NCBI GenBank assembly: GCA_963796275.1
Contig: CAWCKY010000003.1
Span: 672,001 to 736,000 of the forward strand
Direction: 5' to 3'
DNA from: an uncultured Acidobacteriota bacterium
Lineage (GTDB): Bacteria; Acidobacteriota; Blastocatellia; RBC074
DNA: 64,000 nt
Shown here: positions 24,839 through 37,203 of the stretch, one piece after another
Layout: each line of letters starts with the position of its first letter
Position numbering within the stretch: the first letter of the stretch is position 1
Notes under the pieces: generated by a model
Databases searched by the model: none
The model's input: only the letters and a program-made list of their open reading frames with translations
Told to the model about the DNA's origin: nothing
Program-made: the position numbers and the translations under genes

Positions 24839-26152
24839 ATGGCAGGCGTGATGGCCACAAATCAAAAGATTAGATCGAGTGATTATCGTTACCCTGGAGA
24901 ACACCTCTCGCTCGTACTGACCTTCAGCATTCTTATAACTCTCTATATTCTTGCGGCTATCTTTTTCATCGGGACCTGGTTGTCGACTTTGAATACGTTG
25001 ATGTTAACGTTTGCCGGCCTCACTGTTTACATCGTCACAGTCAAGCTCCAACAACGTTCAGCATTCGGCACCCTGGTTCGAGTCGGCCCACGTCAGTTCC
25101 CCGAACTCTATGATTTAGCCTCGGTTGCTGCCGAACGTTTGTCGACTGGGCCGGTCCCCGTCTATGTCAAACGCTCTTCGGAGATGAACATCTATACTCT
25201 AGGTTTTCGAAAGAAGCATTTGATAGTGCTCACATCGTCATTGGTCGATCAGATGGAGCCCGACAACCTGCAATTCTTCATCGGACGCGAGATTGGTCAC
25301 ATACAGGGAGGTCATACGTGGCTCCGAACCTTTCTCAAACCGCTCGGTTCTGAAGTTCCGGTCATCGGAAGGCTGCTAAATAGCGTTATCTTCGGCGATT
25401 GGGTCAACCGCGCTGAATTGACCGCAGACCGGGCCGGCTTCATCGCGTGCCGGTCATTGACTACATCGGTGAGCACCATGCTCAAGTTCGGCATAGGCAT
25501 CAGGTTGTATGAGAAACTCGATATCAAGGAGTTTCTCGGACAGATCGACGAGGTCCGTAATTTTAGCGGGCATCTGACGGAGATTGTCGCCGAGCAGCCA
25601 TATCTGACTCAGCGAGTGCGTGCACTCGTTCGATTCGCCCTGTCCGACCGTTTCTACGCGCTGGTGCCCGATAAACGGGGTTACACGCAGATACTTGAAG
25701 CGATACCTGCAGCTTTCGTATCAACCGGGTTCGATCTGGCCGAGTTCAAGCCGGGGATTGAAAGAACGATTCATTCTAGAGGGAATGTCCTGACGGTCGC
25801 CGATGAGATTGTAACTGCTGTCGAAGAACCCGATGACCTCGATCCAAGTGAAAATGCGCTTGATCCTCGTATGACGCTGGTTGCGGCGGAGGGCGATTCG
25901 ACATACATTCTTCGACGGCATTTCACGCGCATCGGTCGCAACCACGATAATGACATCGTTCTCAACAGCGACCGGGTGAGCAGGTACCACGCCGAGATCA
26001 TGCGTGAGGGTGACGAGATGAAGGTCGTCGATAAGAAATCGCGCAACGGAGTCTGGCTCAATGGTAGAAGGGTCAATGAATCGGCCGTCATCAAGTCGGG
26101 CGATGTGATACGCATCGGGCGAGAAAACCTCACATACACGGAGAAAGATTGA
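24839..26152 (+). CDS. Membrane-anchored M48-peptidase-like domain fused to a C-terminal FHA domain
   Basis: Two TM helices; QFPELY, GREIGH (HExxH variant), AELTADRAG; FHA motifs IGR...NDI...VSRYHA...SRNGVWLNG...GDVIRIG. Confidence 0.85.
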   Translation: MAGVMATNQKIRSSDYRYPGEHLSLVLTFSILITLYILAAIFFIGTWLSTLNTLMLTFAGLTVYIVTVKLQQRSAFGTLVRVGPRQFPELYDLASVAAERLSTGPVPVYVKRSSEMNIYTLGFRKKHLIVLTSSLVDQMEPDNLQFFIGREIGHIQGGHTWLRTFLKPLGSEVPVIGRLLNSVIFGDWVNRAELTADRAGFIACRSLTTSVSTMLKFGIGIRLYEKLDIKEFLGQIDEVRNFSGHLTEIVAEQPYLTQRVRALVRFALSDRFYALVPDKRGYTQILEAIPAAFVSTGFDLAEFKPGIERTIHSRGNVLTVADEIVTAVEEPDDLDPSENALDPRMTLVAAEGDSTYILRRHFTRIGRNHDNDIVLNSDRVSRYHAEIMREGDEMKVVDKKSRNGVWLNGRRVNESAVIKSGDVIRIGRENLTYTEKD

Positions 26153-26742
26153 AACTGGCACGATCGACTGATTTGGCAGAGAAAATCCGGGTCCTGGCTG
26201 AAGAATCTATTGAAGCCAAGCGGCTCTTTTTCCAAGAATCGGCAGCGGATGTCGCGTTCGCCGCTCAGATGATTATCGAAAAGATGCGCGCGGGCGGGAA
26301 ACTGCTGATATTCGGAAACGGGGGATCGGCCGCCGACGCACAGCACCTCGCAGCCGAGCTGGCGTTCAAGATGGGGCGGGAACGCGCGGCCCTTCCTGCA
26401 TTGGCCCTGACGACCGATACATCGCTCCTGACCGCGATCAGTAATGACCGTTCGTTCGATTTCGTATTCGCGCGGCAGATACAGGCCCTCGGACGCGAGG
26501 GTGATATCGTGCTTGCGATATCGACGAGCGGAAACTCGCCCAATGTTATCGAAGCCGTCAAAGAGGCGCGAGCTTTGGATATCGCGGTCATCGGGTTATT
26601 GGGCGCGGGGGGCGGGGAGGTCGCGAAACTGGTCGATCTCGCCCTGATCGTGCCCAACCGCGATACTCCGCGTATTCAAGAGGTTCATATCGCAATCGGC
26701 CATATCATTTGCCAGTTGATCGAGGATGAGCTTTGTAATTGA
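26149..26742 (+). CDS. gmhA: D-sedoheptulose 7-phosphate isomerase
   Basis: GNGGSAADAQH.AAEL, ISTSGNS.N, RIQEVHI..GH. Confidence 0.95.
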   Translation: MKLARSTDLAEKIRVLAEESIEAKRLFFQESAADVAFAAQMIIEKMRAGGKLLIFGNGGSAADAQHLAAELAFKMGRERAALPALALTTDTSLLTAISNDRSFDFVFARQIQALGREGDIVLAISTSGNSPNVIEAVKEARALDIAVIGLLGAGGGEVAKLVDLALIVPNRDTPRIQEVHIAIGHIICQLIEDELCN

Positions 26743-26822
26743 TAGTTGATAATTGATAGTTGATAGTTCGTATAAATTGTTGCCGTAGTCTATACGAACT
26801 ATCAACTATCAACTATCAACTG
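26737..26822. repeat. Palindromic element with (TTGATAG)n / (CTATCAA)n heptamer arms, copy 1
   Basis: Arms and core gtataaattgttgcc..ag...tacgaac shared with 33352-33458. Confidence 0.85.
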
Positions 26823-26831
26823 TTTTTTTCT

Positions 26832-27794
26832 ATGTCAAATTATCGCCAAAAACCGATCGATCTTTCGCGCATCTCTACTTATCCTCTGGCTTCGCGCCCG
26901 AGTAAAGTTACGGTGCGCGATTTCGCGAGCGCTTTGAGTGATGAGCAAGCGCGGGGCGCCGCCGCATTACTCGATTCGATGCCGCATATTCTCACGGCGG
27001 ATTCAATCCGTGCGGTTGCATCTGAAATCGCACAGGCAAGAGCGAAAAATCGCGCAATCATTTGGGGCATCGGCGGGCACGTGATCAAGACCGGCCTTGC
27101 GCCGATATTGATCGACCTCATGCGGCGAGGGTTTATTACTGCGATAGCTATGAACGGTTCGGGCGTGATTCACGATTTTGAGATCGCGATTGCGGGTTGG
27201 ACTTCTGAAGATGTCGAAAGTGGGCTGGCTACCGGAGAGTTCGGAATGGCAGATGAGACGGGGCGACTGATAAACGAAGCGATCAAACGCGGTTTCAAAG
27301 ATGACTGTGGGATCGGCGAATCGGTAGGATGCGCACTGGCCGACCTTAATCCCCAGTACCGACAATTTTCGCTTCTCCACGAAGCTTATAAGGCGCGAAT
27401 CCCGATCACGGCGCACATCACTATCGGTGCGGATATCGTTCACATCCATCCGGAGGCTGACGGCGCCGCCATCGGTGCGGCGTCATATCGCGATTTTCTC
27501 TTATTCACCTCGCTCGTTAAAGAGCTCGATGGCGGCGGGATATATCTCAACGTGGGCTCGGCGGTGACGATGCCGGAAGTCTTTTTGAAAGCCGTGACCG
27601 TCGTGCGAAACCTGGGCCATTCGCTAAAAGATTTCACGACGGCCAATTTCGATTTCATTCAGCATTACCGGCCATCGGCCAACGTAGTGCGAAGACCAGT
27701 GGCCAATGGCGCGGGGCGCGGATATAGCATCACAGGGCATCACGAGATTATGATCCCGCTTTTGTCGGCGGCGGTAATTAATTGTGCGAATTAA
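26832..27794 (+). CDS. Deoxyhypusine-synthase-like fold protein (GSU2086-like), function unknown
   Basis: R.SKV, GGHVIK.GL, HDFEIA..G.TSEDV, IG.DI.H.HP, N.GSAV..PEVFLKA, GHHEIM.PLL; start ATG 26832. Confidence 0.7.
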   Translation: MSNYRQKPIDLSRISTYPLASRPSKVTVRDFASALSDEQARGAAALLDSMPHILTADSIRAVASEIAQARAKNRAIIWGIGGHVIKTGLAPILIDLMRRGFITAIAMNGSGVIHDFEIAIAGWTSEDVESGLATGEFGMADETGRLINEAIKRGFKDDCGIGESVGCALADLNPQYRQFSLLHEAYKARIPITAHITIGADIVHIHPEADGAAIGAASYRDFLLFTSLVKELDGGGIYLNVGSAVTMPEVFLKAVTVVRNLGHSLKDFTTANFDFIQHYRPSANVVRRPVANGAGRGYSITGHHEIMIPLLSAAVINCAN

Positions 27795-27841: not shown

Positions 27842-29431
27842 TCAGCGAAATATCTCAACGGCTTCATCCGCAGGCAAATAAGCGCCCTGCAATCTAACCG
27901 GCACACCCAAGTCCTTGAACAACAGTTCACCTCTGCCCGTCAGGTTTTCGGCTCCGGCAAAATTGAGAAGCATCTTCGATTCCGTCGCTTTCTGCATCTT
28001 CATCGCTATGCGTGCCGGGATGTTGAAATCGACCACGCCGCGTATGATTTCACGGCTGGGTTGGCTCGTGGCCACTATCAAATGGATCCCCACGGTGAAC
28101 GCCTTCTGGCCAAGTTTAACGATCTGCCGCTCTATCGCCTGACGGTTTTTGCGGTCGGACGCAATCAAATCCGCATACTCGTCACAGATGCAGAATATCC
28201 TCGGGATCGGCTTCTTCTTTAGATGAATATATCCGGTCAGTGAGTCCTGCCCGGTTTCCGCCAACATTTTATAGCGCCGTTCCATCACATCGACGAGTTT
28301 GGAAAGCGCCTTGGCGACTGGCTGTTCATCCGGGTAGATAATCGGGGAGAGAAGAAATGGTGAGTTGCGCAGGTCTTCAAAGGCGCTTCGCTTCGGATCG
28401 ATAATCAGTAGACGCATCGTTGCCGGAGTGTTTGTCACGATCAGCCCGGCGATCGCGGCACGCAGCCATTCGGTTTTGCCGCTGCCGGCCATTCCAGCTA
28501 TGAGAATGTGAGCATCTTCGGGCTGCGCGAAGTCAATCAACCGTAATTGGCCCGCGCGGTCGATGCCGAGCGGCGCCTTTGAACTACCGACCAGATTATC
28601 GGATTTTGGCAGTTGTGTCCGAATCGTCGAGAAGAGCAGCTGTTCTGAACGCGCTACTCCGGCCAATCTGCCGATCAGGCTCTTGAGGTATGGTTCGGCC
28701 AGTGCCATTTCAACCGCCGAGATCAGGCGTTCCTGGCGCTGCGGGCCGAAGGATACGAGGGAAAGCCCGCCGGATGAGCGCTCACCTGCGGCAGTAAGCA
28801 ACCGATGATAAAGACAGGCATATACGAGGTCAGACGGAGGGGCAGATTGCCCCGATTGTCCTGATTGCCCCGATTGCGCAGACTGCGCCTTATCTCCCGA
28901 TTGCTCCGTTTTGAGTTCTACCACACACCATCGGTTTGTGCCGGGGATTTGCAGGATCGCATCGGTGCCTCCGGTCAAATGCACGTCATCACGCCAATCG
29001 GGTTGGCCGAGCTCCCAGACGAACGGATGCCCGGCTCGCAGAATTTCAGCGAGCGCCAATTCCTCGTCGCCGAGCTCTTGCTGCCAGAGAAGGTCAGCCA
29101 GCCAATAACACATCTCCTGCGTTGCATCCCAGAGGTTCAGGACGTGATCGGTGTCGTGTTGAAGGACGACTTGGTGACGGAGTAAGCGGGGGGCGAATAG
29201 TTTCTGATAGGTATGCCTGACGAGCGCTCGCCGCCATTCATCGATATCCGGTTCAGCGTCTACGATCGCCGCGCGAAAATTGAGCGATGGGTCAGGGCCA
29301 ACGAGGGCCGCGAAGACCTCGTGAAATAAACGGTCGAGAAGAATAACTGCAGGTATGCCATCGCCATTCAAGCCCACCGAAGCACGTAAGATCGCAGCAT
29401 GCACATCGCAAACCTGCAAAGCGGTTGCCAA
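27842..29431 (-). CDS. PD-(D/E)xK nuclease-like domain fused to an FtsK/SpoIIIE ATPase domain
   Basis: GAGGAGGTG RBS; G.TD...VVELKT; HILIAGMAGSGKT, IIDPK, CDEYADL, GIHLIVAT, GAENL.GRG. Confidence 0.8.
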   Translation of the reverse strand: MATALQVCDVHAAILRASVGLNGDGIPAVILLDRLFHEVFAALVGPDPSLNFRAAIVDAEPDIDEWRRALVRHTYQKLFAPRLLRHQVVLQHDTDHVLNLWDATQEMCYWLADLLWQQELGDEELALAEILRAGHPFVWELGQPDWRDDVHLTGGTDAILQIPGTNRWCVVELKTEQSGDKAQSAQSGQSGQSGQSAPPSDLVYACLYHRLLTAAGERSSGGLSLVSFGPQRQERLISAVEMALAEPYLKSLIGRLAGVARSEQLLFSTIRTQLPKSDNLVGSSKAPLGIDRAGQLRLIDFAQPEDAHILIAGMAGSGKTEWLRAAIAGLIVTNTPATMRLLIIDPKRSAFEDLRNSPFLLSPIIYPDEQPVAKALSKLVDVMERRYKMLAETGQDSLTGYIHLKKKPIPRIFCICDEYADLIASDRKNRQAIERQIVKLGQKAFTVGIHLIVATSQPSREIIRGVVDFNIPARIAMKMQKATESKMLLNFAGAENLTGRGELLFKDLGVPVRLQGAYLPADEAVEIFR

Positions 29432-29452
29432 AAAAACACCTCCTCAGGAAAT

Positions 29453-29528
29453 AGTTTTCAGTTTTCAGTTTTCAGTTTTCAGTCGCCGATTGAGACTGCC
29501 CAACTGAAACCTAAAAACTAAAAACTAA
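29453..29528. repeat. Heptamer repeats (AGTTTTC)4 with inverted arm
   Basis: agttttcagttttcagttttcagttttcagt ... actgaaacctaaaaactaaaaactaa. Confidence 0.75.
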
Positions 29529-31540
29529 TCACTTCTCTCATCGTCGACCACTAGCATTGTGGGCTGAAATATCACGGCCGGCGGTCCGTTGAGCAGGCCG
29601 AAACGTTCGGGATAACGGCGCGCACAGTCCTTTAGTTCATCTTCATTCCGGTCGAGTTTGCAGGCTGCATCAGCAACCGATACGAGATGATGGTTATGCA
29701 GCAACTCGCCGATGTCTTCGCAGAGATTAAAATCATCATTTGCCGTTTTATCCTGTGAGGTTATCGTCTCGGGCAACAGGTTGTCTAATAGTTCACGCAA
29801 TGGGGGAAATTTCATATTGAGATGCGCTGCGAGCCACTCTTGAACCATAGCGGGAGATACCGTTTCGCCGCCATTGGATAGATCGCCCGCTTTGGCGTCC
29901 GACCATATCCCCCTGAGGGTATCGAGCGCGGCAAGCATTGCCGCAGAAGCGCTGATCCATCGGAAACCCTGGGCCACCAGTTGCTCCCGATGCTCTCTCG
30001 TCTTCTTCGCATTTGTCGCAATGGGCAACCGGGCGTCGCGTATGAGAATGAAATTCTCGTGGGTCGTCTCCTCGAGCACCTCCTCTTTGACCTGCTCGCG
30101 TAAACGCCGCAGGCGGCCCGCAAGATTCGTCATATTTCGCTGGTTGCAGAGGCAGATGCTGATGCGACCGCGCGGGTTTTCGAAGACGAGATCGGCGTCT
30201 CCTATCCGGGCGGTTGCTTTGAGCTCCCAATCCTGGTTGAGCAGGCGCAACAGGAGCGGTAATCCGTGCGTCAGTATCTGATCGGTATATTCCACCGATG
30301 CGGCTGCCGCAGTGCGATCGAGACGCATATCGATTGCGCCCGCCAGAAAATCTTCGAGCGGTGGCTTGGATTTGAATAGTTCGGGGCGCATTGCGGCTTC
30401 GAATTTTTCTGCGCAGAACGATAGCATTTCACGCGGCGTGTACTTGTTGCGACGCAACGCTTCACGGATATCCGTGCGGCGCAAAGGCCAGAATCGGCCA
30501 GGTTTGGATCGTCGCAGTTGGCTGATTTCCGGGGTGGAATTGAGCCGCGCTTCTACCAGGCGCTCGGCCTGATCAGGCAGCAATGGTGCCAGCAGGCGGG
30601 AGCCGGATTCGACCAATCGGTCGCGATCCGAACTGATGAGCAACTGCTCCAGTTTCAAATAGAACTGCGTCAGGATGCATGAAATGATCAGGATATTTTG
30701 AGTGCTGTCGTGCAGATAGCTGGCCATTTGGCCGAATTTCAGCAGACCCTCGAGGTCATCGGGGTGGGACTGCAGCGCTTCCACCTGATCGAAACAGAAT
30801 ACGAGCGGCATCTCCGGGCCGGTTAACCGGGTCAGGCTCAGGACGACGCGCCGCGCCCGGTCTTCAACCTCATCATCCTGTTCAATATTCACCTCGAGCC
30901 GGCTGAGCGCGGCCTCCGGCAATGACTCGCCCCTCAACCACGCGCGCGCATCGCGGCGATGGCGGCCCAGGAGCAGATGGCTCAAAACCGTCATGAGGTC
31001 GCGGTCATTGATGAGTAACTGTTGATCGAGACGGTCGAGCGCCTCCTCAATCTCTTCAGCGGCGCCAGGCGATGTCTTGACGCGGCTCCGCAACCCTTCG
31101 AGCCACGCCCACGGTTCGCCGATTTCAGGATAGACATCGAGGATGCGCGGCAGCAGTATCCGCTCGAGCTGCGAACGCCCGTCGGTAGTGAGCCGCAGAA
31201 GATCTTCACCGAAGCGGTTGCGCAGATGACGCCAAATCATCTGCGGGCTGGTCTGCAACCTAACGGAGACGAAGACGGCCGGCGGGGCGGGGCCGTATGC
31301 CGTCAACAGACCAGCCAGATAAGCCTGTAATCTGGCCAGCAGATGTGTTTTGCCGCTGCCGGCTTCACCATAGAAAAGGACCGAAGTCGAAAGTTTTTTC
31401 GAACGCACGTGTTCCAGCGCGCGGCAGCAGAGATCGAACGCATCCTGGTGGATCTCGGCTACATCGACGACATCCCAATTCCAGGGATCAGCGACGATAG
31501 CGCTGCGGAAAGGATTCGTTATGGAGACGCCAGAATTCAT
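29525..31540 (-). CDS. Large P-loop ATPase (AAA+/BrxD-like)
   Basis: N-terminal NPF; Walker A GEAGSGKT; AWLRGE; Walker B VFCFDQVE. Confidence 0.8.
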   Translation of the reverse strand: MNSGVSITNPFRSAIVADPWNWDVVDVAEIHQDAFDLCCRALEHVRSKKLSTSVLFYGEAGSGKTHLLARLQAYLAGLLTAYGPAPPAVFVSVRLQTSPQMIWRHLRNRFGEDLLRLTTDGRSQLERILLPRILDVYPEIGEPWAWLEGLRSRVKTSPGAAEEIEEALDRLDQQLLINDRDLMTVLSHLLLGRHRRDARAWLRGESLPEAALSRLEVNIEQDDEVEDRARRVVLSLTRLTGPEMPLVFCFDQVEALQSHPDDLEGLLKFGQMASYLHDSTQNILIISCILTQFYLKLEQLLISSDRDRLVESGSRLLAPLLPDQAERLVEARLNSTPEISQLRRSKPGRFWPLRRTDIREALRRNKYTPREMLSFCAEKFEAAMRPELFKSKPPLEDFLAGAIDMRLDRTAAAASVEYTDQILTHGLPLLLRLLNQDWELKATARIGDADLVFENPRGRISICLCNQRNMTNLAGRLRRLREQVKEEVLEETTHENFILIRDARLPIATNAKKTREHREQLVAQGFRWISASAAMLAALDTLRGIWSDAKAGDLSNGGETVSPAMVQEWLAAHLNMKFPPLRELLDNLLPETITSQDKTANDDFNLCEDIGELLHNHHLVSVADAACKLDRNEDELKDCARRYPERFGLLNGPPAVIFQPTMLVVDDERSD

Positions 31541-32397
31541 CTTAACGCGATACCTATATAATAATTATTCCATTCATCGGCGACCAATTGCGCCCGCTCC
31601 TGATCGCCGAGGCGAAAGGGGAAATTGTGCCTCTGGAGAGAGACGCGATTTTCCTCGGCCAGTCTGAGCACGGTGCGGTCAAAACTGGCTTTGTCCCATC
31701 CCTCATTCTGCAAGGAACGCCATAGCTGATCGAGCGGAACCAGTTCTCCCTGGGCGGCGGCGAGTTTGATTCGCATTATCTGCGCCAGCAGCTTCTCGCT
31801 CATATCTTTTTGCGAGAGAGGTTTTTTTAATTGCGTGACAGGCAGCGTGCGCGCTGCATAAAGGACCTCATCGGCCGGGAGTCCGAGTTTCTTCCCGATC
31901 TTTTTGATGGCGTCCTGAACGTAATCGCACGGATCGGGAGGTTGTCTGCCGAATCGTGTAGTACGTCCGCCGAGGAATGGGGGTAAAACTTTGACGAGTT
32001 TCTCCTGCCTGAGACGCTTGAGGAGCTCAATTTGCCGCCGCTCATCGTATCCCTTCAGTTTCGCCTTCAATCTTTTCAACAACTCGGCCTGCGTGCGCGG
32101 GCGCTGCTCGAGGAGATCGAGCATTGTCTCGCGGGCATAATCCTCGAAGCTGCGCGACCAATAGCGCGGTTGTTTGCTAGGAGCTTTAGGCGCGAAGCGA
32201 TAGATGGTGCCGCCAGAGACGAGCTCTTCGAGCAATAGAGCGAGCTTATCCGCAGGAAGTTTGAACGGGCCCGTCAGCCGGTCGCGAAGCTGCTGAACGG
32301 TAACGGGTTCGGCCGCCTCCGTGAGCGCTTTCGCGACCACTGCGATCTCAATCGATGGGTCTGCCAGGGGATGAGTGGTGGCGGATGACATTTTCAT
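31537..32397 (-). CDS. Basic hypothetical protein, probably tandem winged-helix domains
   Basis: K/R-rich helical repeats; stop overlaps the ATPase start (ATGA); start likely ATG 32397 or 32391. Confidence 0.65.
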   Translation of the reverse strand: MKMSSATTHPLADPSIEIAVVAKALTEAAEPVTVQQLRDRLTGPFKLPADKLALLLEELVSGGTIYRFAPKAPSKQPRYWSRSFEDYARETMLDLLEQRPRTQAELLKRLKAKLKGYDERRQIELLKRLRQEKLVKVLPPFLGGRTTRFGRQPPDPCDYVQDAIKKIGKKLGLPADEVLYAARTLPVTQLKKPLSQKDMSEKLLAQIMRIKLAAAQGELVPLDQLWRSLQNEGWDKASFDRTVLRLAEENRVSLQRHNFPFRLGDQERAQLVADEWNNYYIGIALR

Positions 32398-32525
32398 TAT
32401 CGTCTCGGGTCGCTTGCCTGCTAGGGGAGAGAACCGTGACCGTTCTTCCAAATGCAAGCGCGGCTGTTTACAGCGAGCAAGAGCATAGCATTGACGGGGA
32501 AGTCAGGCAAATTTATAGTTCACCC

Positions 32526-33344
<819 letters not shown>

Positions 33345-33479: not shown

Positions 33480-34394
33480 ATGATCGCGAAAACGCGATCC
33501 GCAAATAAAGGGGTTTTGTCAGTGTCAACACTTGATCTCAAGACTGTAGGTGTATTCGTCGGGCCGCAAAAGCCGGAAGCCCTCGCCGTCGTGCGTGATT
33601 TGCAGAAATGGTGCGAGCGGCGCGGGATTGAATTGCGCACGGTCGGGACGAGCCTGCAGGAGATGGATTGCACCCCTCTCGCGCAGGAGAATGGGGAACT
33701 CGCCGAAGATGTCGATCTCTTCGTTGTGCTGGGAGGTGACGGAACGATACTTGGCGCGGCGCGCCTCGTCGGCGCGCGCCGTATTCCCGTGCTCGGAGTA
33801 AATTTCGGATGGCTCGGATATTTGACCGAGTTCACTCTTGATGAGTTGTTTCAGGCGCTCGACGGCGTCCGCAACGGAGATTTTTCGGTCGATTGCCGAA
33901 TGATGCTCGACGTGATTCTCGAGCGTGACGGGCGGGCCATCGCCACGTATCGCGCCTTGAACGATGCTGTTATTAATAAAGGCGCGCCGGTTCGTATGAT
34001 CGAACTAGACTGCTATATTGACGGGATGTTCGTCAGCAGTTTTAGGGCGGACGGCATGATCGTTGCTACGCCAACCGGTTCAACTGCCTACTCGCTCTCG
34101 GCCGGCGGCCCGATCGTTCACCCGAGCATGTCAGCCATCCTTCTCACTCCCATTTGTCCCCATATGCTCTCGAACAGGCCCGTCGTCGTTCCAGGCGAGA
34201 GCCTCATCGAGGTTGTCTTCAAGAGAGCGGGGGAAGGTCTGATGTTGACCGTAGACGGTCAGATCGCCATCAGCCTTCTTCCCGATGACAGGGTCTCGAT
34301 TGTCCAAAGCGAATCTAAGTTCGAGCTCGTGCGGCCGACAAATCGTAATTATTTCGAGGTGCTTAAAACTAAGTTGAAGTGGGGAAACATGTGA
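33480..34394 (+). CDS. nadK: NAD kinase
   Basis: LGGDGT, ALND, DG..VATPTGSTAYSLSAGGP. Confidence 0.96.
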   Translation: MIAKTRSANKGVLSVSTLDLKTVGVFVGPQKPEALAVVRDLQKWCERRGIELRTVGTSLQEMDCTPLAQENGELAEDVDLFVVLGGDGTILGAARLVGARRIPVLGVNFGWLGYLTEFTLDELFQALDGVRNGDFSVDCRMMLDVILERDGRAIATYRALNDAVINKGAPVRMIELDCYIDGMFVSSFRADGMIVATPTGSTAYSLSAGGPIVHPSMSAILLTPICPHMLSNRPVVVPGESLIEVVFKRAGEGLMLTVDGQIAISLLPDDRVSIVQSESKFELVRPTNRNYFEVLKTKLKWGNM

Positions 34395-35442: not shown

Positions 35443-37203
35443 ATGAATTTATCCGGTTACCAGCTGATCACAGAGACTGATGACATCCCACGAGTGGCCG
35501 AAGCGCTGATCGCCGAGCCTGCGATCGCCGTCGATACCGAGACCACGGGCCTTGACCCGCACACCTCGAAACTGCGACTGATTCAGCTCGCGACGCCCCG
35601 AGCGAGTTTCATCGTCGATCTATTTCGTCTGCCCACCGGCGCGCTATCGCCTATTCTCGATTGTCTGGCAGCGCCGCGACCGATCAAGGTCCTTCACAAT
35701 GCTAAGTTCGATGCCAAGTTTTTGCTCAGGCACTGCGGAATAAGGTTGAACGCCATCTTCGACACATACCTGGCCAGCATGCTCATCAGCGCCGGTAATG
35801 ATAATGACCGCCACGGGCTGGAGCCTGTTGCCAATCGCTATCTCAACCTGCAGATCGACAAGGAGCACCAATTGAGCGATTGGTCCAGGGAATTGAGCGG
35901 GCACCAGCTGGAGTATGCCGCTCGGGATGCCGCGGTTCTTCTGCCGCTGCGCGAGCGGCTCCTGTCGAAACTCGAAGAGATGGATTTGCTCGTCGCGGCC
36001 GATCTCGAATTCGGCTGTGTGCTGTCGATCGCCGCGTTGGAGCTGGCGGGCATCTATCTCGACGTCGACCGCTGGCGCGCATTGATAGAGCGGAACCGCA
36101 TCGAACACCATCGAATTGCGGAAACGCTGCAGGACGAACTGGGGATGGGTGCTGCGCAGTTGAGCCTTTTCGACGGCACTGCGGAGCGGATCAATCTTGA
36201 CAGCCCCGCTCAGGTGAAATATGCGCTGGCGCGCCTCGGCATCGATGTCGAGGACACTCGTGAATGGACGTTGCAGAAACTCTCACGTAATCACCCCGTC
36301 CTCGATAGACTACTCAAACACCGCAGCCTCAGCAAAAACCTTTCGTCTTATGGAGAAGGCGTCCTCGACTACATCAATTCCGCCACCGGGCGCATCCATG
36401 CGGATTTTCGCCAGATTGGAACTCCGACCGGGCGCATTACGACCTCATCGCCCAGCCTGCAACAAATCCCCCACACGATGGAATATCGCTCTTGCTTCCG
36501 CGCGCCTCTCGGAAGAAAGCTGATCGTCGCCGACTATTCGCAGGTGGAGATGCGGATACTTGCTGATTTTTCGGGAGACGATGCCTTATTGGCCGCTTTC
36601 GATTCCGGCGCCGATCTGCACCGGATAACGGCGTCGGAGATGTTCGGCATCCCGATCGACCAGGTCACTCCGCGGCAGCGGGAAAGCGCGAAAGGCTTGA
36701 ACTACGGGTTGGTTTACGGGATGGGGGCTGAAGGACTGGCGGGCAGGATCGAGACGAGCGTGAATGAAGCACAGGATTTGATCGATCGTTACTTCAACGC
36801 TTATGCAGGCGTCGCGCGCTGGTTGACTGAGGCCGCTGAGCGCGCGGTGCGACAGGGGGCGAGCCGCACGGCCTCGGGGAGAATATGGATTTACCGGTTA
36901 GACCCGGAAGACCGCCAGCAGTTCAATGCGCTCAAGCGAGTCGGTAAGAATGCTCCGATCCAGGGCACGGCATCCGATATTTTTAAACGCGCCATGACGC
37001 TTCTCGATGAGGCCCTCTTGAGAATAGATGCGCGAATAGTCAACAGCATCCACGATGAGCTCGTCGTCGAATGCGACGAGTCGATTGCCGAAGAGGTGAA
37101 AGAGATAGTCGTATGTAAGATGATCGAGGGGGCCAAGGAATTTTTGCCGCGCGTCGCCGTTACCGTCGAGGGGGTGATTTCGGATGCGTGGCTCAAGAAA
37201 TAA
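35443..37203 (+). CDS. Family A DNA polymerase with 3'-5' exonuclease and no 5'-3' nuclease domain
   Basis: Exo motifs DTET, HNAKFD, YAARD; polymerase motifs DYSQVEMR, R..AK..NYG..YG, HDE; 586 aa. Confidence 0.93.
   Translation: MNLSGYQLITETDDIPRVAEALIAEPAIAVDTETTGLDPHTSKLRLIQLATPRASFIVDLFRLPTGALSPILDCLAAPRPIKVLHNAKFDAKFLLRHCGIRLNAIFDTYLASMLISAGNDNDRHGLEPVANRYLNLQIDKEHQLSDWSRELSGHQLEYAARDAAVLLPLRERLLSKLEEMDLLVAADLEFGCVLSIAALELAGIYLDVDRWRALIERNRIEHHRIAETLQDELGMGAAQLSLFDGTAERINLDSPAQVKYALARLGIDVEDTREWTLQKLSRNHPVLDRLLKHRSLSKNLSSYGEGVLDYINSATGRIHADFRQIGTPTGRITTSSPSLQQIPHTMEYRSCFRAPLGRKLIVADYSQVEMRILADFSGDDALLAAFDSGADLHRITASEMFGIPIDQVTPRQRESAKGLNYGLVYGMGAEGLAGRIETSVNEAQDLIDRYFNAYAGVARWLTEAAERAVRQGASRTASGRIWIYRLDPEDRQQFNALKRVGKNAPIQGTASDIFKRAMTLLDEALLRIDARIVNSIHDELVVECDESIAEEVKEIVVCKMIEGAKEFLPRVAVTVEGVISDAWLKK

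Follow-up and report, generated by a model that had tools for sequence, protein, structure and literature searches.

We analyzed three adjacent minus-strand genes, here called g1, g2, and g3 (together, the trio), in a 64,000-nucleotide stretch of a contig from an uncultured Acidobacteriota bacterium (the whole stretch is called the window below, and positions are counted from its first letter). We conclude with moderate confidence that the trio belongs to the Orc/Cdc6-coupled "HerA/FtsK capture" class and that the DNA pump of this copy is impaired. The class is already known from a computational prediction published in 2024; what is new here is a member with a degraded pump. The three genes are as follows.

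31537-32397, minus strand: g1, 286 aa from ATG, a triple winged-helix (winged helix-turn-helix, wHTH) protein
31537-32457, minus strand: g1 from an alternative TTG start, which adds 20 residues
29525-31540, minus strand: g2, 671 aa, an ORC/Cdc6-clade AAA+ ATPase
27842-29431, minus strand: g3, 529 aa with a TTG start, a PD-(D/E)xK nuclease fused to an FtsK motor

An earlier, sequence-only reading of this DNA had described three codirectional genes running against plus-strand housekeeping genes, with g1 overlapping g2 by ATGA. The open reading frame (ORF) coordinates and a Pfam scan of ten flanking ORFs agree with this arrangement, and the ATGA at 31537-31540 is common to the stop of g1 and the start of g2. 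The spacer between g2 and g3 is 93 nt long and contains a strong hairpin and a GAGGAGG Shine-Dalgarno sequence ahead of the TTG; g2 and g3 are not coupled.

Domain architecture of the trio and its fit to a predicted class

The available text of a 2024 study describes "Orc/CDC6-coupled HerA/FtsK capture systems" that occur in mobile neighborhoods and whose predicted target is invading DNA (Nucleic Acids Res 2024;52:1005, PMC10853773). According to that text, the Orc/CDC6 ATPase has an inactive restriction endonuclease (REase) domain between its AAA+ core and a C-terminal wHTH, and the further parts are an active REase, a HerA/FtsK ATPase, and a wHTH. It also describes a subset with a fast-evolving protein of two to four wHTH domains related to DndG, SspB, or the FokI DNA-binding module, and one set in which an N-terminal FtsK-alpha domain was "captured" from cellular FtsK (PMC10853773). 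Judged from this class description, the trio fits component by component, with an Orc/Cdc6 AAA+ protein in which a middle domain precedes a C-terminal wHTH, an active REase, a cellular-type FtsK ATPase, a separate multi-wHTH protein, and a patchy distribution across phyla. The FtsK-alpha domain and an intact motor site are found in the g3 family but not in the window copy. The proposal that the trio is undescribed was therefore set aside as far as the class description goes, since its architecture is the one published there. On the question of a named system the answer is divided: PADLOC v2 has no system for the capture class, and the trio is named neither by its models nor by those of NCBIfam, but a described, unnamed class matches it. 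The literature that we found on this class consists of comparative-genomics work, with neither an experimental test nor a name.

The structure model of g2 (pLDDT 92.6, pTM 0.92) is ORC/Cdc6-like and places the predicted protein in the ORC/Cdc6 clade within the AAA+ ATPases. Its Pfam matches are AAA_16 and AAA_22, the top Foldseek matches of the model are ORC4, Cdc6, and Orc1, and the alignment to Orc1 (2qby_A) covers model residues 5-664. All four motifs singled out from the sequence were located in the translation: NPF (residues 9-11), the Walker A motif GEAGSGKT with K64, AWLRGE, and the Walker B motif FDQVE with D251, Q252, and E254. This D-Q-x-E form of Walker B is unusual and is invariant in 75 sequences. 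The model divides the protein into three parts.

30371-31453, minus strand: AAA+ core and lid of g2, about residues 30-390
29891-30295, minus strand: middle alpha/beta domain of g2 with predicted REase-like topology, about residues 416-550
29567-29758, minus strand: C-terminal wHTH of g2, about residues 595-658, ordered helix-strand-helix-helix-strand-strand

A helical pair follows the lid and leads into the middle domain, whose elements run alpha-beta-beta-beta-alpha-beta-alpha-beta in the model. No conserved D...(D/E)xK was found in this domain across the 75 sequences, and in the model the topology together with the missing motif fits an inactive REase. Of 1.84 billion cluster representatives, 398 belong to the g2 family at E<=1e-30. 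A metagenome homologue is 96% identical to g2. Among the 120 of 400 close homologues listed, names go no further than "ATP-binding protein," "AAA ATPase," or "hypothetical."

The suggestion of a wHTH-like first gene was borne out, with the structure model of g1 (pLDDT 91.7) and its fold matches placing three wHTH domains at residues 14-80, 84-150, and 196-285. The protein is fast evolving (22-52% identity among 22 homologues), and its C-terminal wHTH is the most conserved stretch. A Pfam scan of the 22 homologues gave no family and scattered weak HTH matches alone; DUF4007 is absent from the 25 of 60 families listed in that scan. DndG, SspB, and FokI chains are not among the fold matches listed for g1, which is not evidence of their absence. 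An ESM Atlas search with g1 returned solely "hypothetical protein" clusters from Acidobacteriota and Planctomycetota. Predictions of a g1-g2 complex scored 0.55, 0.60, and 0.65, with one control at 0.41, and we did not use them as evidence for or against an interaction.

For g3, the proposed fusion of a PD-(D/E)xK-like domain to an FtsK ATPase is matched by Pfam PDDEXK_1 (E 4.2e-4) and FtsK_SpoIIIE (E 5.5e-29). The features of this gene, including those that set the window copy apart, are listed below.

28646-29431, minus strand: PD-(D/E)xK (RecB/Cas4-like) nuclease domain, residues 1-262, Pfam PDDEXK_1
28832-28906, minus strand: low-complexity insert at residues 176-200, with SGQ repeats that derive from a 9-nt tandem, absent from the 22 other sequences
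27842-28633, minus strand: FtsK/SpoIIIE motor (beta) domain, Pfam FtsK_SpoIIIE
28634-28642, minus strand: in-frame loss of a linker and the FtsK-alpha domain of about 95 aa, between residues 264 and 265 (alignment columns 415-499)
28097-28099, minus strand: arginine finger R replaced by F445, in the motif KARAAGIHL; R in 22/22 others
28064-28066, minus strand: sensor-1 glutamine Q replaced by S456, the first Q of ATQQPS; Q in 22/22 others

The PDDEXK_1 match to the window copy is weak and covers residues 34-252; the same model matches 15/23 members of the g3 family, with a best E value of 2.8e-11. In the alignment of 23 g3 sequences, D157 and Y208 are invariant and E172 and K174 are at least 90% conserved, and the window copy keeps all four, which points to a nuclease of the active REase type with its catalytic residues intact. 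Homologue alignments start at residue 1 of g3. The SGQ-rich insert, 25 residues long and lineage specific, lies directly after the ELK motif of the nuclease and contains 9-nt direct repeats at 28845-28880; shortly after it, Y204 stands where most homologues have Q.

Losses from the FtsK motor and constraint on g3

FtsK_SpoIIIE matches all 23 members of the g3 family and, in the window copy, residues 283-401 and beyond; the closest PDB match of the family profile is FtsK (2iuu, E 3e-80). The Walker A lysine K319 and the Walker B residues D417 and E418 are kept. A Pfam scan of g3 found no FtsK_4TM match and no gamma domain, and the highest 19-residue Kyte-Doolittle mean, 1.66, lies inside a conserved nuclease helix, in agreement with the earlier description of g3 as soluble and free of transmembrane segments. 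The FtsK-alpha domain is present in 22/22 other aligned g3 sequences and in 5/5 close relatives and is absent in the window; Pfam FtsK_alpha matches 15/23 family members, the window copy not among them.

Two residues of the motor site are also replaced. In Pseudomonas aeruginosa FtsK, the columns that correspond to F445 and S456 of g3 read KARAAGIHLILATQRPS, and the arginine in that column is chain position 374, counted along the alignment. With a construct that starts at residue 247, this position is presumably R620. R620 is named as the arginine finger of FtsK in the available text of PMC7321959, and the class description identifies sensor-1 as the glutamine that ends strand 4, with the arginine finger just upstream of that strand (PMC10853773, as far as its text goes). 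A further near-invariant position, D502, is replaced by E. With FtsK-alpha, the arginine finger, and the sensor-1 glutamine all lost, the motor of the window copy can probably no longer act as a hexameric, arginine-finger-coupled translocase. The genome's own canonical FtsK is encoded elsewhere, in an 894-aa frame (E 1.4e-68).

Compared with the orthologues in genus-mate G002, dN/dS is 0.23 for g3, 0.078 for g2, and 0.167 for g1, figures that are rough because dS is saturated (1.1-1.8). Identity of the window proteins to outgroup orthologues lies below that of G002 by about 12 points for g3, about 7 for g2, and about 5 for g1. Among the window genes, g3 has evolved fastest and is degraded furthest. 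One way to read this is that the cassette is simply decaying and functionless, its open frames being a matter of time. Such decay would account for the loss of FtsK-alpha, the arginine finger, and sensor-1, for the low-complexity insert in the nuclease, D502E, and Y204 in place of the usual Q, and for a repeat element between g2 and g3 and the accelerated g3 branch. We nevertheless regard it as very unlikely: all three frames are open, dN/dS values of 0.08-0.23 are far below 1, the nuclease triad and both Walker motifs are kept, a strong Shine-Dalgarno sequence precedes g3, and the g2 homologue from a metagenome is 96% identical. We read the window g3 gene as probably still constrained despite its impaired motor, and a motor-impaired nuclease steered by g1-g2, or a cassette in early reduction, is more likely than a dead pseudogene.

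Distribution of the trio

A scan with a g2 profile, taking one genome per species, found 66 loci, 57 of them with a substantial g2 match, in Acidobacteriota, Planctomycetota, Myxococcota, Verrucomicrobia, Heliobacteriaceae, and Thermodesulfobacteriota. We scored the presence of g1 and g3 over these 57 loci by tblastn. Forty-six loci extend at least 2200 nt downstream, and in 37 of them both the N and C parts of g3 follow g2 directly; 49 loci extend at least 900 nt upstream, and in 44 of them g1 lies directly upstream of g2. In the complete genome of Minicystis rosea (CP016211; 7986-11930 of the extracted locus), g2 and g3 are fused into a single frame of 1314 aa, uninterrupted by a stop where they join. 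Co-occurrence of the three genes, proposed earlier as a check on the trio, is what these counts give across phyla, and gene content and order indicate that the trio is a real conserved unit, horizontally scattered across phyla. It does not show uniform vertical conservation: g2 is present in 10/24 other genomes of the window's family and in 0/16 genomes of other families in the class, and, as described below, its site is polymorphic.

Nine of the 46 loci carry g2, mostly with g1, and no g3. In these loci g2 is followed by unrelated genes, such as tex, a pyridine-nucleotide oxidoreductase, or an aldo-keto reductase. In one of the nine, a Polyangiaceae locus (L040, 9987-11672), the g3 position holds a gene for a 561-aa protein that Pfam does not match and that tblastn does not relate to g3; this protein may be an alternative effector.

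Insertion site and mobility

The genes that flank the trio are plus-strand housekeeping genes.

24839-26152, plus strand: 437-aa protein with an M48 peptidase domain and a C-terminal FHA domain, by Pfam
26149-26742, plus strand: SIS-domain (gmhA-like) gene, by Pfam
26760-27794, plus strand: 344-aa protein, unmatched in Pfam at E<=1e-5
32523-33344, plus strand: Inositol_P (suhB-like) inositol monophosphatase, by Pfam
33480-34394, plus strand: NAD kinase, by Pfam

The start of the suhB-like gene was inferred from homologue alignments, which open at residues 31-58 of the long ORF. The label "DHS-like" that the sequence-only reading gave to the gene at 26760-27794 found no backing in Pfam at the above threshold.

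Genomes G002, G013, and G005 have the trio in the same place as the window, flanked by the 344-aa gene and suhB; in G001 and G011 it adjoins suhB. The g2 proteins at the suhB site are 64-77% identical to that of the window, compared with 39-47% for a second, more distant lineage of the trio, which occupies other sites in G007, G017, and G022; G014 has g1-g2 alone. We surveyed the site from the 344-aa gene in 29 loci (30 with the unpublished G004). The 344-aa gene stands directly beside suhB without a trio in 18/29 loci (19/30 with G004), the trio is at the site in 4/29, and a g1 homologue alone, 32-44% identical, is there in 3/29, all from one genus. The remaining 4/29 loci reach a contig end or match neither suhB nor the trio within about 1.5 kb. 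Within a single genus, G013 has the trio and G041 and G049 have the empty site. Empty sites, g1-only sites, and two lineages in one family together mean that the cassette is accessory and has been repeatedly gained or lost.

The g1-only loci are L113 (1658-2488, G022), L115 (1906-2775, G009), and L116 (1610-2458, G048), and G022 carries, besides its g1-only site, a full, more distant trio on another contig. On contig C755 of G001 (L012), a gmhA-like gene is directly beside g3, and the 344-aa gene was not found with this query anywhere in that genome, which is 87% complete; the G001 site is rearranged. The 344-aa protein is found in 40/41 family genomes searched (E<=1e-40), and its neighbor is nearly always suhB or gmhA.

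An accessory cassette could also be the machinery, or a remnant, of a mobile element, with g2 as a TnsC/MuB-like target-selecting ATPase and g3 as an FtsK/TraB-like pump serving the element's own transfer or integration. We consider this highly improbable. The conserved unit includes no transposase, integrase, or relaxase, and such genes lie nearby in 1 of 12 neighborhoods examined (L073); no integrase, transposase, terminal inverted or direct repeats, or target duplication was found at the borders of the window cassette; and a nuclease fused to the pump would destroy DNA, not deliver it. Searches with g2 gave nothing among 50,697 phage records and a single weak match among 72,556 plasmids. 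This sole plasmid match is a distant trio in the same order on the conjugative 328-kb megaplasmid NC_019690 of Pseudanabaena sp. PCC 7367; BLASTP found no similarity between g1 and the first gene of that trio (E 0.29). The Pseudanabaena trio (L118, 5051-10010) encodes a 266-aa hypothetical protein, a 680-aa P-loop NTPase, and a 688-aa "DNA translocase FtsK," and its neighbors are a SWIM zinc-finger protein, a DEAD/DEAH helicase, and IS21.

Neighborhoods and a possible defense role

We scanned the neighborhoods of 12 long loci (120 ORFs) and found defense-type genes near the trio in 4 of them: a type II methylase and an MTaX1-HNH protein in L035, a Dam-like D12 methyltransferase gene directly upstream of g1 in M. 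rosea (L053), SoFic in L067, and a ZorD/DpdE-like SNF2 protein with Mu-transposase and integrase fragments in L073. The kinase, the ABC ATPase, and the small-molecule methyltransferase that make up three further PADLOC matches are generic domains, and the other 8/12 neighborhoods contain housekeeping or unknown genes alone. The association with defense islands, which the sequence-only reading had proposed to check, is present in the 4 loci and missing from the 8, so the link is weak at 4/12. Judged from gene content, a role in defense is plausible but unproven.

Proposed working and alternatives

In intact versions of the system, g1 and g2, the latter as an ATP switch, would bind and mark a DNA, with g2 contributing its own wHTH and a predicted, catalytically dead REase-like domain. 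The g1-g2 pair would then load or activate g3, whose FtsK alpha-beta ring would pump double-stranded DNA past the N-terminal nuclease, which would cut it; the target would presumably be invading DNA. In the window copy, only loader-dependent nuclease action could remain. If the class is an immune system, it would destroy DNA by way of a captured chromosome-segregation pump, in a group of Orc/Cdc6-FtsK-nuclease loci that is widespread in large-genome soil and freshwater bacteria.

Several of our observations weigh against this reading. The 9/46 loci with g2 and no g3, and the three genomes that hold just a g1 homologue at the site, are unexpected for a pure nuclease-effector system. Two-thirds of the neighborhoods (8/12) lack defense-type genes, the window cassette has none of the mobility features looked for at its borders, and phage and plasmid records yielded no match and one weak match, respectively. 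The dN/dS figures are rough at the saturated dS noted above, and for the class as a whole we found no experiment in the literature, the defense role being a comparative-genomics prediction. Finally, the middle domain of g2 is REase-like by predicted topology only, and domain-level tests gave nothing: the matches in a whole-model fold search were taken up by the AAA+ domain, hhalign of the middle-domain alignment against the g3 nuclease alignment gave a probability of 0.3%, and PDB profile searches returned just SNF7 (E 0.35, noise) for the middle-domain alignment and no match for the g3 nuclease alignment. A sequence-only PDB search with the profile of whole g2 returned nothing meaningful (best match, myosin, E 0.0087).

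The loci without g3 and with g1 alone raise the alternative that the g1-g2 pair is the conserved core, a chromosomal module of DNA binder and ATP switch, like RcaD/RcaG, that would serve gene regulation or DNA surveillance, would not be primarily immune, and would have the nuclease-FtsK protein as an optional part. According to the available text of PMC2799420, RcaD (CAC39267) of Calothrix (Tolypothrix) sp. PCC 7601 is a 285-aa protein with a conserved C terminus thought to bind DNA; it is reported to bind a phycocyanin promoter, and the ATPase gene rcaG lies downstream of rcaD (Noubir et al. 2002, via PMC2799420). The likeness to g1-g2 is in order and sizes, the comparison being one of gene order and size alone, and the role reported in that text is promoter binding in chromatic adaptation, not defense. 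In favor of this alternative are the 9/46 loci, in one of which the housekeeping gene tex comes after g2, the g1 homologue alone between the same flanks in three genomes of one genus, the 8/12 housekeeping neighborhoods, and the position of window g3 as the fastest-evolving and most degraded of the trio. We nonetheless hold it to be unlikely, though it deserves serious attention, since g1 gave E 0.29 against the first gene of the cyanobacterial plasmid trio, presence and absence within a genus and a second lineage elsewhere fit an accessory gene better than a core regulator, and the catalytic residues of the g3 nuclease are conserved family-wide.

A related and rather doubtful proposal is that the selected core is g1-g2 acting on host DNA, in the manner reported for RcaD/RcaG, with g3 as a detachable effector, and that the window holds a rare intermediate in which the pump is disabled and the nuclease is under selection. 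If so, the window would record the change, in nature, of a translocase-nuclease into a nuclease that binds ATP and depends on a loader. Returning to the capture-class assignment that we favor, the degraded pump means that the window copy is not the best one for a first functional test. Comparison with the empty sites shows gain and loss of the cassette inside a single genus, and the pump-disabled, constrained g3, together with the g1-g2-only and g1-only relatives, offers natural variants for dissecting which part does what.

Comparison with other systems

The WLRGE-type ATPase had been likened to BrxD of BREX, and the resemblance survives at the level of the clade: BrxC and BrxD are ORC/Cdc6-clade AAA+ proteins according to the available text of a 2026 paper from the group that described the capture class, which also restates the class pattern (PMC12839542). 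This shared clade explains the association. Beyond it, g2 differs from BrxC/BrxD in an NPF...DPW motif of its own at the N terminus and in a Walker B of the form DQxE. As a candidate, BrxD was rejected: no BrxD or BrxC PADLOC model matches g2 at E<=0.1, the context is housekeeping, and none of the ten flanking ORFs scanned matches a BREX-type family (PglZ, PglX/BrxX methylase).

DndH/SspH and g3 are alike in joining an REase to a C-terminal HerA/FtsK-class ATPase in one polypeptide, but g3 is without the N-terminal helicase-like, target recognition domain (TRD), or inactive methylase domains. PADLOC SspH models match g3 residues 294-529 (E 9e-36 and 3e-30) over profile positions 1323-1559 of 1561 and 1534-1738 of 1766, the last 200-240 or so, and both these and the mad8 matches of g3 are FtsK-domain matches. 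With only the FtsK part of SspH matched, no match for g1, and no DndF/G or SspF/G match for g2, we rejected DndFGH/SspFGH; equivalents of DndF/G and SspF/G were likewise not detected by PADLOC models on the trio or by the Pfam scan of the flanks. Cellular FtsK is the closest relative of the g3 motor domain, and g3 homologues keep FtsK-alpha (15/23 by Pfam). In contrast to cellular FtsK, g3 lacks the 4TM anchor and the gamma (KOPS-reading) domain and has a fused N-terminal nuclease. Identity of g3 as the cellular FtsK was rejected, with only the beta motor matched and the canonical FtsK located elsewhere in the genome.

Composition, regulatory sequences, and the spacer hairpin

The GC content of the trio (0.53-0.59) shows no contrast with that of the flanks (0.52-0.57). 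Beyond the NAD kinase gene, the plus-strand flank continues with a rhomboid gene and then a family-A polymerase. This family-A DNA polymerase (35443-37203, 586 aa) has a 3'-5' exonuclease domain and no 5' nuclease domain and is shorter than classical Pol I. The remaining features concern the regions between genes.

32398-32522, no strand assigned: divergent intergenic region between g1 and the suhB-like gene, with a sigma-70-like site at 32491-32519 on the plus strand, facing suhB
29452-29527, minus strand: hairpin between g2 and g3, with 26-nt arms that are 88% complementary and tandem CTGAAAA heptamers
29429-29445, minus strand: Shine-Dalgarno sequence GAGGAGG (29439-29445) and TTG start (29429-29431) of g3, read from the sequence

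A simple consensus scan of 32398-32522 found no promoter-like site for the trio, and a promoter and terminator consensus scan found nothing convincing bounding it. The spacer hairpin folds as RNA at -37.8 kcal/mol (z -4.3), and 0/200 shuffles were as good. The CTGAAAA array has 195 forward and 180 reverse matches in the genome (375 in all, with up to 2 mismatches), compared with 0 for the reversed control pattern; the hairpin is a copy of a genome-wide, dispersed REP/MITE-like element family. At the same g2-g3 junction, genus-mate G002 has a different hairpin made of CAAAGGGT units, and genus-mate G001 has a short TTTGAGA tandem run.

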